Of a stretch of 22,883 nucleotides of DNA, positions 14,854-22,252 are shown one piece after another. Source of the DNA: a virus (lineage: Duplodnaviria; Heunggongvirae; Uroviricota; Caudoviricetes). The notes under the pieces are model-generated. The model worked only from the letters and a program-made list of their open reading frames with translations. It searched no databases and was not told the DNA's origin. Each line of letters begins with the position of its first letter. Position 1 is the first letter of the stretch. The DNA lies in the IMG/VR virus record IMGVR_UViG_3300043406_000147. One strand, 5' to 3'. Both the position numbers and the translations under genes were made by a program.

Positions 14854-14952
14854 AGTCTTCTCTTTTCGTTTTCTGATGTATGCTGGGGGCTTTTTGCCCT
14901 ACATTGGATTACACGCTTTTATCTTTTTTTGGTCAGGAGTGGTGCAGTGTTA

Positions 14953-15891
14953 ATGTCTGAATTAGGGGGGATGACCCTCTCGAAACTGCGATTTTATTCG
15001 ATTGGTGTCGTCGCTCAAAATAAGGCTCTGGGTAGTCATTTGATCGAGGTTACACCAATCGAAGAAGTTCCGTTTGCGGATGGTGAAATCACGGCTAAGC
15101 TGGAAAGGACAAACGTCGTAGGCACAGACGCAAATGGCGCCAGCTACAGCGCCAACATGACGGGGTCACTTGCGATCAGTGCAAACTGGTTGAGGCTGGC
15201 TGGTGGGAATCGCTTAACAGCTCCAGATGTGAGGCGGGGCGAGACGGTTGTGATTTATCAGTTTGGTGATACGGATAAATACTACTGGACCACGCTTCGA
15301 GATGATCACAGTTTACGGCGATTGGAGACTGCTATTTACGGCTGGAGTGGCTCTCCTGTTGAGGACACCCCTGTCGGTAAAGACACGATGTATTGGTTGG
15401 AGATTTCCACTCATCGAAAAGTCGTGCATTTTCACACGTCAAAAGCCAATGGGGAACCATTTGCATACGACATCCAACTCAACACCAAAGACGGTGCCTT
15501 GGTCATTCAGGATGACATCGGTAACTACATTCATTTGGATTCTAGGCAACGGCGTATCGAGCTGAAAAACACGGATGGCTCACACTACGACATGTTGCAA
15601 GAAAACCTGACGGTCACCATCCCTAAGAAAACAAGGTTCGTGACGACTGACTTTGTCGTGGAGGCAAGCAACACAGCTTCGATCACCGCTACGAATGCAT
15701 TCAGTGTAGCCACCAAGGTCAGCGACATCAATGCGTCTGAAGCTGCTGCGATGAAATCTAAGGACACGACTATCATTGGTTCTTCGAAACTCAGTCAGAC
15801 GGGCGACTCCGTCAGCGTCAGTGGTAGCACCATCGACGTTTCGGGTGGGGACTCTATCTCCATCATCTCTCCTGCAACGACGATCATTTAA
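14953..15891 (+). CDS. Baseplate central spike (gp5/gpV/VgrG-like: OB-fold plus beta-helix)
   Basis: N-terminal 'FYSIGVVAQNK...A.WL...NRLTAPDVRRGETVVIYQFGDTDKYYW' is OB-fold-like. The C-terminus is Ser/Thr/Ile/Val-rich with beta-helix-like periodicity. PAAR gene follows directly. Start ATG 14953 or 14971 (ORF track TTG 14929). Confidence 0.75.
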   Translation: MSELGGMTLSKLRFYSIGVVAQNKALGSHLIEVTPIEEVPFADGEITAKLERTNVVGTDANGASYSANMTGSLAISANWLRLAGGNRLTAPDVRRGETVVIYQFGDTDKYYWTTLRDDHSLRRLETAIYGWSGSPVEDTPVGKDTMYWLEISTHRKVVHFHTSKANGEPFAYDIQLNTKDGALVIQDDIGNYIHLDSRQRRIELKNTDGSHYDMLQENLTVTIPKKTRFVTTDFVVEASNTASITATNAFSVATKVSDINASEAAAMKSKDTTIIGSSKLSQTGDSVSVSGSTIDVSGGDSISIISPATTII

Positions 15892-15892
15892 A

Positions 15893-16171
15893 ATGGACAG
15901 AACTTATAAACGATTGGTGCTTCTTGGTACTAAAACTGATCATGGCGGTTGCGTGATCTCGGTCAGTTCCACATTCAAAACAGGTGGTGGTCGAGTGGCT
16001 CTGGATGGGGACCTCGCTACATGCCCTCAAAAAGGACACGGTGGGGTGGTGCAAATCATCTCTAAACGTTCTTCCAGGAACAGGGACCGCTCAATCGCTA
16101 TCACGGGAGATGTCACCACTTGTGGTGCGGTGCTGATCGACGGGGCTGGCTCCGCCAGAGTGGCTGAGTAA
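15893..16171 (+). CDS. PAAR-domain spike tip protein (92 aa)
   Basis: Starts 1 nt after the spike stop. 'LGTKTDHGG', 'ALDGDLATCPQKGHG' and 'AITGDVTTCGAVLI' are the three PAAR repeats with His/Cys metal ligands. Confidence 0.88.
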   Translation: MDRTYKRLVLLGTKTDHGGCVISVSSTFKTGGGRVALDGDLATCPQKGHGGVVQIISKRSSRNRDRSIAITGDVTTCGAVLIDGAGSARVAE

Positions 16172-17602: not shown

Positions 17603-18535
17603 GTGGCATATACATACGCTTTTGACCCGTCTGGGGTTAGTCTGGCCAACAAGGTCACGGGTGAGACGCACGTCCTCACAGCGGTCAACTCAAGGGCTTA
17701 TCACTACATCGTACCGACCTTTGCTCCGTTCTTCGGTGCGGGGTTGGTGGTTGTCTTCAAGGATACAACAAACGCCATTCGTCCTCTGGTTGAGGGCTTG
17801 GATTATTTGCTGAGTTACCAGTTCATTGGGGCGTCACGTGCTACAGCAAAGCCGATCTATGGTGGCATCAGCCTGATCAACACCGAACTCAGTGGCGTGA
17901 TCACACTGAGCTATCAGACACTTGGTGGCGAGTGGACACTCGACACAGCAGCCATCAGTCAGATGCTGAGTGATACACTTCGCAATCCACGAACGACATC
18001 GTGGGAGCAAATCGCTGGTGTGCCGAAAGTATTCCCACCGATCGACCACGCGTGGAATCTGATCGATCTGGTCGGCATGGCCGAAGTGCGCGATGCTTTG
18101 GTGGACATCAGTGACGAAATCGCAAAGTTAGCGAATCGCACTACTGAAGACATTCCTCAACTGTATCAGACCAAGCAACAACTCGGCCTGGCGTTCGTTC
18201 AGAACTACAAGATCGCTACCGATTTAGAAGCAACTGCGGGTGTAAGCTCGACTCGGTACATGACGCCTCGGGCAAGTCGTTTGCTGGCAGAGCGACTCCT
18301 GGCAAGTTACGCTGAACAATATCTCAAGAAGTACAAGTCGAATGTGGCGCCGGCTGCTGGAACCTGGAACCCAGGAGATTATGTTGAGAACACCGCGCCC
18401 ATCGTAGCCACCTGGGTCGGTGGTAAACTGGACGGTGTGAAATACGTCATCAAGGGGTGGAAGCGCATCACGGGCGGGAGTACGAACATCATGGGAACGG
18501 ACTGGGTCGAAGACCGGATCATCACGGTTGCCTGA
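17603..18535 (+). CDS. Virion tail/baseplate-associated fibre-like protein
   Basis: SD AGGAG before GTG 17603. N-terminus 'YAFDPSG...GETH...PFF...GLDY...IYGGI...YQTLGGEW' and 'TTSWEQIAGVPKVFPPIDH' are typical of phiKZ-like fibre anchors. Fibre repeat 'TKQQLGLAFVQNY..AT..EATAG.S.TRYMTP'. C-terminal 'P..GTW.PGD.V.N..P...GW' motif. Confidence 0.65.
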   Translation: MAYTYAFDPSGVSLANKVTGETHVLTAVNSRAYHYIVPTFAPFFGAGLVVVFKDTTNAIRPLVEGLDYLLSYQFIGASRATAKPIYGGISLINTELSGVITLSYQTLGGEWTLDTAAISQMLSDTLRNPRTTSWEQIAGVPKVFPPIDHAWNLIDLVGMAEVRDALVDISDEIAKLANRTTEDIPQLYQTKQQLGLAFVQNYKIATDLEATAGVSSTRYMTPRASRLLAERLLASYAEQYLKKYKSNVAPAAGTWNPGDYVENTAPIVATWVGGKLDGVKYVIKGWKRITGGSTNIMGTDWVEDRIITVA

Positions 18536-18544
18536 TTTATCAGA

Positions 18545-18582
18545 CGGCATAGAAGCCCGGCTTCCGCCGGGCCAATATGCCG
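18545..18582. terminator. Bipartite hairpin between convergent genes
   Basis: CGGCATA-GAA-GCCCGGC-TTCC-GCCGGGC-CAA-TATGCCG: 7 bp, a 3x3 internal loop, then 7 bp. Confidence 0.75.
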
Positions 18583-18588
18583 CACGTT

Positions 18589-19053
18589 TCACGGTACAAT
18601 TTTTGGAGGACCTTGGCTGGCCTCCAGTTGCTTTTTGATTTCAGCGGCTCTCTTGTTGTCTTCTTCCAAGAGAGCTTCTGCAATGCTGAATAACATCATC
18701 ACGTGTTCATGCGGCAGTTTTATAAACTGCGGTAACGTGACGTTGAATTTTTGCCCGATTTCTAGTTTTGCAAACCGCTTGTACAAGTATTGGAAACGTG
18801 AGGACTTTGAGAGGTCTTCAGCATGGTGTATCGCAACACTTGATAGAGGCCGTGCTAGTTCCGGGTTTTTGTTTTGTTGCTCGTTTTCGAATTGCTGAAT
18901 GTGGTCATGAATCCCAAAAGTGACTTCATATGCCTGCCTTAGATATTGCACCCCAGTGAGGTAATCGGTCTTTGGGGCCGATCGCATCACGTTGACCAAG
19001 AACGAGTCTTCGTCAATTTCTACGGGGAAATCCAAGTCAGTCACATGTCTCAA
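18589..19053 (-). CDS. Conserved protein (phiKZ gp76-like position); C-terminus resembles T4 gp51 / tail-chaperone 'T' domain; may be expressed as a frameshift extension of the upstream gene
   Basis: The frame is open from 19173, but there is no ATG with a good SD near the upstream stop (only TTG 19053 or GTG 19044). C-terminal 'KFNVTLPQFIKLPHEHVMMLFSIAEALLEEDNKR'. Confidence 0.65.
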   Translation of the reverse strand: MRHVTDLDFPVEIDEDSFLVNVMRSAPKTDYLTGVQYLRQAYEVTFGIHDHIQQFENEQQNKNPELARPLSSVAIHHAEDLSKSSRFQYLYKRFAKLEIGQKFNVTLPQFIKLPHEHVMMLFSIAEALLEEDNKRAAEIKKQLEASQGPPKIVP

Positions 19054-20672
19054 CCCCGCTTGGCGATCTTCATCAGCTTTTGGGGAGCCAGGGTAAAAAA
19101 AAGCGAGTACACATCCAACGGAAGCAGGCCGGGGAATTTCTTGCCAGGGCCGGCAGATTGCTCTTGATTGCACTTGGGGCAGGTGTAGGTCGGCAGTGCG
19201 ATCAGAGAGATCACGCTGTCTTCCAGGTACTTGCCGACCGCCTTGACGAACGCATCGCGCAGGTCGTCGTTGGCCGACATGTCCGTCAGGATGGCGTTGA
19301 TGGCTGGTCGGGAGGTCACCAGTTCGCCGCCGTAGAGTCGAATGCCTTCGACAAAGTGCGCGTACTGCCGACAGATGCTGGCGTACCCGTGCATCAGCAG
19401 TGACTGGTTTCGCTTGTTCTCGTCCGCCATCATGGCTTTGCCATAGGCTTCCTCGATCTCACTCACCCAGAGCTGGCCAGCGTTGATGTGAGCTTCGACC
19501 GATTCGATCGACAGCATGATCTCGACATCCGGCGAAAGAATCACTGAGCGACGCTGCCCCTTGATGAAGTCTTCCTTGTACGCCTTCACCGCTTCGACGG
19601 AAACCGAGCTGGCACGGCGCTGAGCCATGTGCTTGACTTGTGCCTTGGTGAGTTCGGCGATGTTGGTGAACTGCAGCTTGCTGAGGTCCAGGCGTTCCTT
19701 GACTTCATGGGTGCACTTGGGCTCATCGCCCTTGGGCAGCGCCACACACGAACGGATGTAGTTGAAACCATTCGGCCAGATCGCGCACGCCATGGCCCAG
19801 ATGACCACCGGCAGATCCAGGACGCTGATGTGGTCGCGGATGTTGTCCGTTTCCTTCAGGATCAGGTTCGTGCCTTGGATGTGCTCCACGACGAAGTCCA
19901 TCAGGGTACTCGACGTGTAGCTCGACCAGTTCGAGAGCAGCAGGCCGTACGTTTGACGACCCAGGGTCACCCGGTCACGGGCGATCTGGTTGTAGACCTC
20001 GATCAGGGCGCTTTCTTCAGGAGCGGTCAAGCGCAGCCAGATGCCGCTGTGCCAGAGACCCACTTGGAAAAGACCGCCAAGGCCAAACGCCTTGCGCGCC
20101 ATGATGCGCGCGGTGTTCACGTCCAGCTCTTGCCCTGGTTTGCGGGAGAGCGCCGTCGGTGCTCGGCTAATCAGCTCACCGGCTTCGCTTTGGACAGACT
20201 GGCGGAACATCGCCGTCTCGTCCATGACGGTGCCGTGCAGGGCATTGTCCTTGAGTCCCTTGTTGACGGACTGCATGTGGTTGTCTTTCCAACGCTCGCC
20301 GTTGGCAGCCGCTTCGATGTCCGCCGCCGGGATCTTGCTGAAGACTTCGTCGATGTCGCCGCTGTTGATCGACGGCAGCTGGATCACCTCGGTCCGGTCG
20401 TCGGCGAGTGCCGGGTAAGACCACTGGTGCGTGTCCGAATAGTTTCGAACAAGCCCACTCGGACTCGGGGTCGTCGGGGGTGCGAACTGCGGTGGGATGT
20501 CGTTCCAGTCTTCCTCTTCGAAAAGCTCGACCGGATCAGCCACGACCATCTGAGCAGTGGGTGGAATAGGTGCTGGCTCAACTGCCACGGGTTTGGGTTC
20601 CGAGGCACGCAGCTGTTCGAGCGCTGTGAACTGCTCGCTCGATAGGTTGCCGAAAGTTTGGAAGTCGTCCAT
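19050..20672 (-). CDS. Conserved protein (phiKZ gp77-like position), T4 gp26-like baseplate hub/tail assembly chaperone
   Basis: SD AGGAG 6 nt before ATG 20672. Pro/acidic N-terminal extension. 'DLPVVIWAMACAIWPNG...C...C.....LDL' and C-terminal 'TCPKC...LFF' parallel the recalled T4 gp26 pattern (C-terminal CPxC...FF). Confidence 0.7.
   Translation of the reverse strand: MDDFQTFGNLSSEQFTALEQLRASEPKPVAVEPAPIPPTAQMVVADPVELFEEEDWNDIPPQFAPPTTPSPSGLVRNYSDTHQWSYPALADDRTEVIQLPSINSGDIDEVFSKIPAADIEAAANGERWKDNHMQSVNKGLKDNALHGTVMDETAMFRQSVQSEAGELISRAPTALSRKPGQELDVNTARIMARKAFGLGGLFQVGLWHSGIWLRLTAPEESALIEVYNQIARDRVTLGRQTYGLLLSNWSSYTSSTLMDFVVEHIQGTNLILKETDNIRDHISVLDLPVVIWAMACAIWPNGFNYIRSCVALPKGDEPKCTHEVKERLDLSKLQFTNIAELTKAQVKHMAQRRASSVSVEAVKAYKEDFIKGQRRSVILSPDVEIMLSIESVEAHINAGQLWVSEIEEAYGKAMMADENKRNQSLLMHGYASICRQYAHFVEGIRLYGGELVTSRPAINAILTDMSANDDLRDAFVKAVGKYLEDSVISLIALPTYTCPKCNQEQSAGPGKKFPGLLPLDVYSLFFTLAPQKLMKIAKRG
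19095..19102 (-). other. U8 slippery sequence (U UUU UUU), candidate -1 programmed ribosomal frameshift site
   Basis: Minus-strand TCG CTT TTT TTT ACC in the upstream frame equals GCT TTT TTT TAC in the -1 frame, which is the downstream ORF. Confidence 0.55.
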
Positions 20673-20696
20673 GTGTTTCTCCTGCAATCCGATGGA

Positions 20697-21269
20697 TTAG
20701 GCTTTGTCAGCAGCGGACTTCGAATCGGCCGTGGTGAAGTCGATGTCCGTGACCATTTCAGCAGCAGGCGCTGCAGCGGCGTTCTCGACGATTGCCATGG
20801 CGTTTTCCAGACGGTCCTTGTGCCGGCGCAGTTCTTCTTCAGCACCCAGGGAGTTCATCACAGCAGTGACCGTGTGGGAGATGGTCGTGGTGTAGAACTC
20901 CGCTGCATCGGTGTAGGCACCTTGGGCTTGCAGAACCACCAGTGCATCGCCTTCAGACTTGATCGAACCTTTCTTGCCGGCGTGGATGTCATGGATTTCA
21001 CTGAGACGACCAGCATGCGCAGCGAGATCACGGGTGAGCAGCTCGACATCATGGATGAGCTTTTCAGGCTCTTTGATCAAGCTGTAGGCCACCGGATCAG
21101 AGGCTGCGGCCTCCAGCAGGTCGACGACGACTGCCTGGACGCTCGTGATGCCTTCCATGGAAACGGTGTACGTGTCTTCCAGCTTGTCCCACAGTCGGTT
21201 GTTGCGACGTTCTTCGGCAGCCTTGGCGGCCTGACGAACACGAAGACTCATTTTGCTATTGACGGGCAT
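20697..21269 (-). CDS. Conserved hypothetical helical protein (190 aa)
   Basis: SD AGGAG 8 nt before ATG 21269. Co-directional with and directly upstream of the gp26-like gene. Confidence 0.75.
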   Translation of the reverse strand: MPVNSKMSLRVRQAAKAAEERRNNRLWDKLEDTYTVSMEGITSVQAVVVDLLEAAASDPVAYSLIKEPEKLIHDVELLTRDLAAHAGRLSEIHDIHAGKKGSIKSEGDALVVLQAQGAYTDAAEFYTTTISHTVTAVMNSLGAEEELRRHKDRLENAMAIVENAAAAPAAEMVTDIDFTTADSKSAADKA

Positions 21270-21391
21270 CGAAAAAGCTCCTGGAATGTTTTGACTAGAT
21301 CAGCAGCTGGATTAGTGCTGACAAGGGGTGGCGATGTGTGCACATTATGCATTGTCGTTATTCTTTTTTTACCCATTTAGGAGAGAACTAC

Positions 21392-22252
21392 ATGCTTGAA
21401 TACGCAGAAATGCGAAATCACATCCAAGCCGTACAGGGCGACGATACGATCGAACTCTTCGATGAAGCCATCAAAGTGTTTGATCTCTATCAAACACCAG
21501 GCTACATGGAGATCTTCGAGACGACTTTCGCAAACCTGGTTGACCCTTCGGATGTCGAAGTCATTCTAGCTTGGCAGAAGAATCTGCGTGAGATCCTGAC
21601 ATCGCTGATGAATTACCAGGGCGTGGTTCTGGTTGATGACATTTTGATCAGTGACCTTTTGGAAATTGCACGGGCCAGTTTCGAGTTCATTTTCAACGAA
21701 GACAAGCAAACTCTGTTTCGTCAAATCGAGTCAATCGAAAACGAGTCTGAGTTGTACGCCGAGATTATCTCAAACAACTCTTCACTTGGGGTAGAGTTCG
21801 TCTTATCCCAGCTCCTGAGTGTTCCTGATAATTTGGGTGGGATCATCAAGGGGCGATTGTTGGAGTTGCAAGAAGAGCAAACGCATGCCAAGGAACTGGC
21901 GAAAATACTGAAGAGGTATGCTGCGTTCAAGAAAACAACGCATGGTCAGACCTACCTGTTTGCTGATCAGCTGATCAATAACCCGCGCGTTCTGGGTCTG
22001 CCGATGGAGAACTATGTTTCAATGTTTCTCGCAGGCCAACATCGCCCATCTGAGACAGATCAAGAAACATACAAGCGAGTCTCAAAAGAGTTGTTTGCTC
22101 TGGCATGCCTGAGCTGTGATGGTTTTTCAAACCCAGTGCACTGCGTACGGCAATTCGTATCGCAGGTCTATAGCGACGTACAGGCATGTACAGTCGTCAT
22201 CACACAACTGAACGGTTTCAATTCCGAGATGCTCAATCATGAACAAGTATGA
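21392..22252 (+). CDS. Conserved hypothetical/virion protein (phiKZ gp79-like position)
   Basis: SD TAGGAG 8 nt before ATG 21392 (better than ORF-track start 21338). Acidic helical protein overlapping the next gene by 14 nt. Confidence 0.7.
   Translation: MLEYAEMRNHIQAVQGDDTIELFDEAIKVFDLYQTPGYMEIFETTFANLVDPSDVEVILAWQKNLREILTSLMNYQGVVLVDDILISDLLEIARASFEFIFNEDKQTLFRQIESIENESELYAEIISNNSSLGVEFVLSQLLSVPDNLGGIIKGRLLELQEEQTHAKELAKILKRYAAFKKTTHGQTYLFADQLINNPRVLGLPMENYVSMFLAGQHRPSETDQETYKRVSKELFALACLSCDGFSNPVHCVRQFVSQVYSDVQACTVVITQLNGFNSEMLNHEQV

Follow-up and report, generated by a model that had tools for sequence, protein, structure and literature searches.

Eight consecutive T's close to the 3' end of a phiKZ gp77-like gene are probably the site of a -1 programmed ribosomal frameshift (PRF), through which one gene would give rise to a short isoform of 540 amino acids (aa) and a long isoform of 694 aa. 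The gene lies in a 22,883-nucleotide (nt) viral record (IMG/VR IMGVR_UViG_3300043406_000147) that we refer to, at its full length, as the window; it corresponds to the phiKZ gp69-gp80 region of an uncultured, GC-rich phiKZ relative and encodes RNA polymerase subunits, a helicase and an SbcC-like protein. If the frameshift that we propose from comparative sequence analysis is real, it represents a deeply conserved recoding signal in a new gene family. Our literature search, whose coverage did not extend to subscription journals, returned no paper on a frameshift in phiKZ gp77, in jumbo phages or Chimalliviridae, or in the baseplate-hub gp26 literature, in agreement with a first-pass annotation of this DNA, according to which such a frameshift is not known to have been described for phiKZ-like phages.

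The frame relation and the slippery site across phiKZ relatives

The arrangement at the junction consists of the following features.

19050-20672, minus strand: gp77-like zero-frame gene, 540 aa plus stop, phiKZ gp77 family
19095-19101, minus strand: candidate slippery heptamer T_TTT_TTT, in phase, inside the T8 run, at the invariant Phe525-Phe526 codons
19050-19094, minus strand: overlap region, read in the zero frame as the conserved 14-residue tail TLAPQKLMKIAKRG and the stop, and in the -1 frame as the linker YPGSPKADEDRQAG
18589-19101, minus strand: -1-frame extension, 170 codons counted from the FF codons, stop at 18589-18591, family phrog_12109

The 540-aa protein, which we call the body, is identical to database protein P0004 and starts at ATG 20672, six nt downstream of an AGGAG Shine-Dalgarno (SD) sequence at 20683-20679. 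Its zero-frame codons at the site read TCG CTT TTT TTT ACC, the T8 run occupying 19102-19095 on the minus strand, and the 14 sense codons that follow end at a TGA at 19052-19050. The downstream open reading frame (ORF), 18589-19173 on the same strand, occupies the -1 frame and runs uninterrupted through the T-run, where it reads ...AFFYPGSPKADEDRQAGLRHVTDLDF.... A slip at the heptamer would yield ...DVYSLFF-YPGSPKADEDRQAGLRHVTDLDF..., which we compute from the window sequence as 524 + 170 = 694 aa. The position of the T-run 14 codons before the stop, the open -1 frame and the gain of about 170 residues had all been put forward by the first-pass annotation, and each is borne out in the window. 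The predicted trans-frame junction is DVYSLFF followed by YPGSPK in this phage and ...STFF followed by YFGGLEVKPDGVVNDLR in phiKZ.

Body and extension belong to phrog_4585 and phrog_12109 (E 1.8e-16), respectively, both of them PHROG families without an assigned function. The body was found by tblastn in 207 jumbo-phage records, in which the extension lies directly downstream; their hosts include Pseudomonas, Erwinia, Salmonella, Serratia, Ralstonia, Vibrio, Klebsiella, Burkholderia, Xanthomonas and Bacillus. In phiKZ, the equivalents are PHIKZ077 and PHIKZ076.4, the latter annotated only as an 80-aa protein from an internal ATG. The phiKZ gp077 protein is listed in the supplement of Prichard et al. 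(2023; PMC10299810) as equivalent to Goslar gp081 and RAY gp267, and as Chimalliviridae core gene cg18, "hypothetical protein"; 68 genes are catalogued there in the core genome of nucleus-forming jumbo phages.

To compare loci we assembled a set of 51, consisting of the window, five GenBank records and 45 IMG/VR contigs, which fall into 27 clusters at 50% identity (hereafter lineages); a 97.5%-identical second phiKZ-type record (L050) raises the heptamer counts to n = 52. The window has no DNA-level relative among GenBank phages and its protein has no close relative in IMG/VR, so all comparisons were made at 23-44% amino-acid identity. Over this distance, the downstream ORF lies in the -1 frame in every locus (51/51; 27/27 lineages). 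Counted from the T-run, the open stretch of the -1 frame is 157-194 codons long in the 51 loci; in the +1 frame, a stop is reached after a median of 13 codons. The first-pass annotation had proposed checking whether relatives share the heptamer, overlap in the -1 frame and keep that frame open, and all 51 loci pass this check, which supports its suggestion that short and long forms are made from one locus.

The site itself is conserved along with the frame. An in-phase heptamer of the form T_TTT_TTN is present in 43 of 52 loci (T_TTT_TTT in 33, T_TTT_TTC in 8, and T_TTT_TTG or T_TTT_TTA in 2), and the codon that precedes the two Phe codons ends in T in 48 of 52, across ten different amino acids. 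Among 27 lineage representatives, third-position information amounts to 1.5, 2.0, 0.81 and 1.54 bits at -1, +2, +5 and +8, compared with 0.05-0.6 elsewhere; T is kept at -1 in 24 lineages and at +2 in all 27. All 51 loci use TTT for the first Phe codon of the site, against a family-wide usage elsewhere of 303 TTT and 447 TTC and a usage in the rest of the window gene of 2 TTT and 14 TTC. One GC-rich locus (L020) has no TTT and 11 TTC elsewhere, yet has TTT at the site. Judged by these counts, the pattern goes far beyond chance. The +8 position (window 19092), the third base of the codon after Phe-Phe, is a C in 25 of 27 lineages; the reason could be the sequence context 3' of a slip site, or else that the Pro of the trans-frame FFYP is under selection.

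How the extension is reached

Read as a -1 PRF, the junction would work as follows. Ribosomes on the gp77-like mRNA would reach U_UUU_UUU with tRNA-Phe in both the P and A sites, and a minority would slip back by one base, in a tandem -1 slippage of the two tRNAs, and continue with UAC CCU.... The slip would put a helical extension of 168 residues in place of the last 14, so that one mRNA would supply both the 540-aa and the 694-aa forms in a ratio set by the slippery sequence, no other stimulator having been found. In the AlphaFold2 (AF2) model of the body, the frames part at the start of its last helix (H521-539), and thus the long form would trade a conserved 14-residue helix for a new domain. 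If the body is, as seems probable, a relative of the T4 gp26/gp51 hub assembly proteins, the two forms would be a non-virion assembly factor with and without an additional partner-binding domain. We infer the ribosomal nature of the slip, its efficiency and this function from the arrangement of the locus. Among the usual hallmarks of -1 PRF, the in-phase heptamer, the open and overlapping -1 ORF, and a conserved site and frame with synonymous constraint are all present; a stimulatory 3' structure or a 5' SD-like sequence, which is common and not obligatory, was not found.

Several observations weigh against a programmed ribosomal frameshift. Nine of the 52 loci lack a canonical heptamer (G_TTT_TTY in 4, a degenerate T5 in 5) and still keep the layout, so the mechanism must be less canonical there. 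Across the 51 loci, the 75 nt 3' of the heptamer fold no better than shuffled sequences or gene-body controls (mean z -0.42), nor do the 65 nt downstream of the window's site (z +1.26; pseudoknots were outside the folding). These values do not bear out the stem or pseudoknot that the first-pass annotation had suggested from TGGC/GCCA and CCCC/GGGG blocks. Upstream of the site, no conserved SD-like block occurs in the 27 lineage representatives. In addition, the window has an in-frame TTG at 19053 and GTG at 19044 that could in principle start the extension, and none of the best 150 of 1721 matches to the extension profile is a natural in-frame fusion with the body.

In the clade of L029, L031 and L032, and in L034/L035, the site has become T_TTT_TCC, T_TTT_ACC, T_TTT_ATC or T_TTT_ATT (positions ~3786 in L029, 4029 in L031, 3933 in L032 and ~3867 in L034/L035); all keep the -1 layout and have no start codon for the extension. 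At a conserved Gln-Lys five codons downstream, all five members of the L029/L031/L032 clade carry C_CAA_AAG or C_CAA_AAA, where slipping might occur instead. The window's overlap also contains C_CAA_AAG (~19085-19079), where it is a possible secondary site. A recurrent 4-bp hairpin, CUGC-N4-GCAG, located 3 nt after the main site, was considered as a stimulator and rejected: it reflects conserved Leu-Leu-x-Gln codons and is too near the site.

The in-frame TTG and GTG raise the question of whether body and extension are two separate genes, the extension being translated from a weak or non-canonical start (GTG 19044 or TTG 19053) or by termination-reinitiation, and the T-run reflecting nothing other than Phe-Phe. 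In the window both codons lie just past the zero-frame stop, preceded by a weak GAG only, and all six database records examined annotate two separate genes with no joined coding sequence. The relatives tell against independent initiation. The alignment of the extension consists of a variable linker followed by a first conserved block, HV..p.FG, which begins 5-32 nt past the zero-frame stop in most loci. There is no ATG, GTG or TTG between the slip site and this block in 42 of 51 loci, and none from the block back to the previous -1 stop in 38 of 51. The window's GTG aligns with the conserved Val of the block, whose codon is GTC in 17 loci, GTG in 7, GTA in 6 and GTT in 5, with ATH and others besides; such varied codons indicate that an amino acid is conserved here, not an initiator, and this codon usage rules out the Val codon after the zero-frame stop as a GTG start. 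In L047-49 the block begins as far as 55 nt before the zero-frame stop, out of reach of reinitiation. In the best 150 of 1721 representatives, the called extension proteins have starts scattered over profile positions 1 to 58, and hence no extension start is conserved. Taken with the -1 frame in 27 of 27 lineages and the synonymous T's retained against codon bias, these data make a two-gene arrangement very improbable. They also narrow down where the frame changes. In about 20 loci, only 0-4 codons separate the T-run from the -1-frame stop that precedes it, and in L010 the two abut, which places the shift between the T-run and the zero-frame stop.

A shift within this interval need not involve the ribosome. 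RNA polymerase could add one U in the run of 7-8 T's in some transcripts and so produce the same 694-aa fusion; in such phages the enzyme would be the phage-encoded multisubunit polymerase. Most loci do have a homopolymer of 7-8 T's, no RNA stimulator of ribosomal slippage was found, and comparative genomics cannot tell two mechanisms with identical protein products apart. Efficient polymerase slippage, however, usually needs runs of at least nine, and the runs here are nowhere longer than 8 T's and are of only 5-6 T's in 9 of 52 loci. Where there is a seventh T, it occupies the 5' X position of X_XXY_YYZ (24 of 27 lineages) and never the 3' end, a bias that is partly a coding constraint, and the T_TTT_TTC, T_TTT_TTG and T_TTT_TTA variants suit tandem tRNA slippage. 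We therefore regard transcriptional slippage as unlikely and favor -1 PRF as the source of the long form.

Base composition changes at the junction as well. GC content falls from ~0.59-0.62 in the main gene to 0.42-0.48 in the extension of the window, and GC at third codon positions (GC3) falls from 0.77 in the body (19103-20672) to 0.51 in the extension (18592-19049). Extension GC is below body GC in 47 of 51 loci and GC3 drops in 42 of 51, most strongly in GC-rich phages. The first-pass annotation was thus right about the drop; its explanation, weak translation, is plausible, in that the lower GC and GC3 may mark a region read by a minority of ribosomes. The same drop might be expected of a decaying or non-functional ORF, and a difference in frame might come from a sequencing or assembly artefact. 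Such a reading is effectively refuted by the conservation of the extension as phrog_12109, with 1721 representative clusters at E<=1e-3, by the confidence of its structural model and by an identical layout in 51 independent assemblies.

The body, the extension and their surroundings

The AF2 model of the extension is all helical, with a mean predicted local distance difference test (pLDDT) score of 79, and in it a disordered Pro-rich linker leads into a helical unit that is modeled with very high confidence at residues 101-162 (pLDDT >90 for residues 101-160). Pfam returns nothing for the extension, its structure matches only jumbo-phage orthologues, and a VIA wide search gives only generic helix-loop-helix and zipper matches at Z<=5.1. 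The proposal in the first-pass annotation that the extension is a gp51-like or lambda T-like domain therefore finds no support: the extension is helical, its matches are confined to jumbo-phage orthologues, and nothing links it to either.

The body is modeled with a pLDDT of 83 and a predicted template modeling (TM) score of 0.82. No solved structure emerged as a relative from Foldseek against the PDB (E<=0.001), from VIA wide (Z<=6.0) or from an hmmsearch of the PDB (E<=10), and the fold matches to gp26/gp51 proteins are comparisons between predicted models throughout. Beyond jumbo-phage orthologues, Foldseek against BFVD found T4-type 'baseplate hub subunit', 'assembly protein' and 'chaperone' models of ~250 aa, with E ~1e-3 to 1e-1 and TM by target of 0.5-0.58; hits bearing these names score E 1.2e-3 to 4e-2 at a probability of 0.97-1.0. 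An AFDB match is named 'Baseplate protein' (E 9e-3, TM by hit 0.53), and residues 360-495 match a PF12322 cluster in the Atlas (TM 0.57). PF12322 is the T4_baseplate family, called 'gp26 family baseplate hub assembly chaperone' by NCBI. Pfam searches gave no PF12322 match for P0001 or P0004 and nothing significant for either window ORF; below the gathering score, PF12322 appears in 2 of 41 relatives (best E 0.0078) and in one fragment (E 0.057). By Pfam's own criterion, then, the body is not a PF12322 member. Aligning the body with a T4 gp26 family alignment in hhalign gave a probability of 34% and E 4.3e-4 over 58 C-terminal columns, in a '...AIPt.CPxCG' segment, and a single T4 gp26 sequence gave a similar outcome.

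The two proteins also share a co-linear pattern of residues. T4 gp26 reads ...WKCTCG...VPIKCPECGKTHAHVIRGLKEFFELL to its stop, with C82, C84, C187 and C190 invariant and F204 and F205 at least 90% conserved, so the CPxC...FF ending given for it in the first-pass annotation is correct. The body has C309...C320...C498-P-K-C501...F525-F526, with F525 and F526 invariant, in the same order as the CxC...CPxC...FF of gp26. Its four Cys residues occur together in 28 of 41 relatives and are lost together in 13 (for example P0044), and probably form a zinc site.

Window ~19748, 19715, 19181 and 19172, minus strand: the four Cys of P0004 (309, 320, 498 and 501), which co-occur in relatives

From the modeled fold matches, the sub-threshold PF12322 hits and the pattern of four Cys and FF, we suggest, with some reserve, that the body, mainly in its C-terminal half, is probably related at a distance to the T4 gp26/gp51 baseplate-hub assembly proteins, of which it would be an enlarged version. 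The 'T4 gp26-like chaperone' of the first-pass annotation stands to this limited extent. At residues 370-486, there are also weak, non-significant fold matches to an AFDB 'Tail assembly chaperone' (E ~1) and to YqbN (PDB 3klu; Z 4.6, root-mean-square deviation 4.3 over 83 residues), a hint from structural models that gp26/gp51-type proteins and tail assembly chaperones (TACs) may share a domain; by sequence, no TAC family was found on residues ~355-495 of ten members. Goslar gp81, the gp77 orthologue, goes unmentioned in the Goslar virion structure preprint, which states that all hub and inner-baseplate density was assigned. This silence fits a non-virion assembly factor, as a faint indication.

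In the window, the pair is flanked by a gp78-like gene upstream and a convergent gene for a tail or virion protein downstream; in phiKZ, it lies between gp78 and small ORFs adjoining the helicase gene gp75. The following neighboring features were recorded.

20697-21269, minus strand: upstream co-oriented gene at the phiKZ gp78 position, 190 aa, its TAA 24 nt before the gp77-like start
18555-18572, minus strand: GC-rich hairpin GCCCGGC GGAA GCCGGGC, 7 bp with a GGAA loop, 17 nt 3' of the extension stop and followed by TTCTATGCCG

The hairpin is likely to mark the end of the transcription unit, and a consensus terminator scan did not call it. There is no promoter-like site and no convincing terminator between the body and extension ORFs, and no sigma-70-like promoter site in 18300-21500. 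Farther away on the plus strand (14929-16171), an ORF of phrog_3216, 'baseplate assembly protein', overlaps a PAAR-motif ORF by 116 nt. The latter matches PF05488 (E 1e-13) from residue 51 onward, and its gene probably starts later than the listed TTG. The baseplate-assembly family gene, the PAAR protein and a tail protein are all encoded within 3 kb of the gp77-like locus, a proximity to spike-tip and baseplate genes unlike that in phiKZ and a further, indirect hint of a part in hub assembly.

Among nucleus-forming jumbo phages, phiKZ and its relatives are the models, and they are also candidates for phage therapy. A genuine frameshift would mean that every record examined lacks a core protein of ~690 aa, that PHIKZ076.4 and its equivalents are a mis-annotated fragment, and that knock-out, transposon-sequencing and proteomic results for both ORFs need to be read again. 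Heptamer mutants would then also provide a handle on a poorly understood step in T4 gp26/gp51-type hub assembly.

Comparison with known systems

Frameshifting is well established in the tail assembly chaperones of lambda (G/GT) and P2 (E/E+E') (Xu, Hendrix and Duda 2004, as given in PMC9024508; Levin et al. 1993, as given in PMC8570332). Like these, the gp77-like locus would be a phage morphogenesis gene that undergoes a conserved -1 slip close to its 3' end and so yields short and C-terminally extended forms from one mRNA, here by comparative inference. It also resembles them in having no strong RNA stimulator, in an extension ORF without a start of its own, and in being a kind of arrangement that annotators often miss. 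Unlike G/GT, however, the gp77-like body is 540 aa long instead of ~100-150 aa, its gene is found outside the interval between tube and tape-measure genes, the heptamer is U_UUU_UUU instead of G_GGA_AAG, and there is no match to a TAC Pfam family. In its recoding logic the pair is G/GT-like, or T7 10A/10B-like; its position and its lack of TAC Pfam matches set it apart from a G/GT chaperone. It is conceivable, if doubtful, that the gp77 family is the jumbo-phage, and more widely T4-type, counterpart of G/GT, a gp26/gp51-like hub chaperone whose short-to-long ratio is set by frameshifting and whose helical domain recruits a hub, tube-initiator or tape-measure partner. Were this true, it would link the chaperone systems of contractile and non-contractile tails, possibly via a shared TAC-like domain at residues 370-486.

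Compared with T4 gp26, the gp77-like body is 2.5 times larger and has an extra N-terminal half. Gene 26 of T4 also gives two products, but by internal initiation (annotated 26'). A frameshift in gene 26 itself was considered and rejected, the homologous FF being encoded by TTC TTT with the stop three codons later and no slippery site. The next gene, T4 gene 25, does have a -1 relation to gene 26, which it overlaps at a TAATG five codons after FF (L052, 7760-7880). T4 has no counterpart of the 168-aa extension of the gp77 family.

A further parallel is offered by gene 10 of T7, in which a -1 frameshift at G_GUU_UUC near the end of a structural gene (10A/10B) produces a minor, C-terminally extended isoform. 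The 10B protein is the capsid protein lengthened by 53 residues, and its production relies on a distal 3' element. The gp77 family resembles this system in having a U-rich heptamer near the end of the gene; unlike T7, it would use the shift to attach a folded domain of 168 residues to a probable assembly factor.

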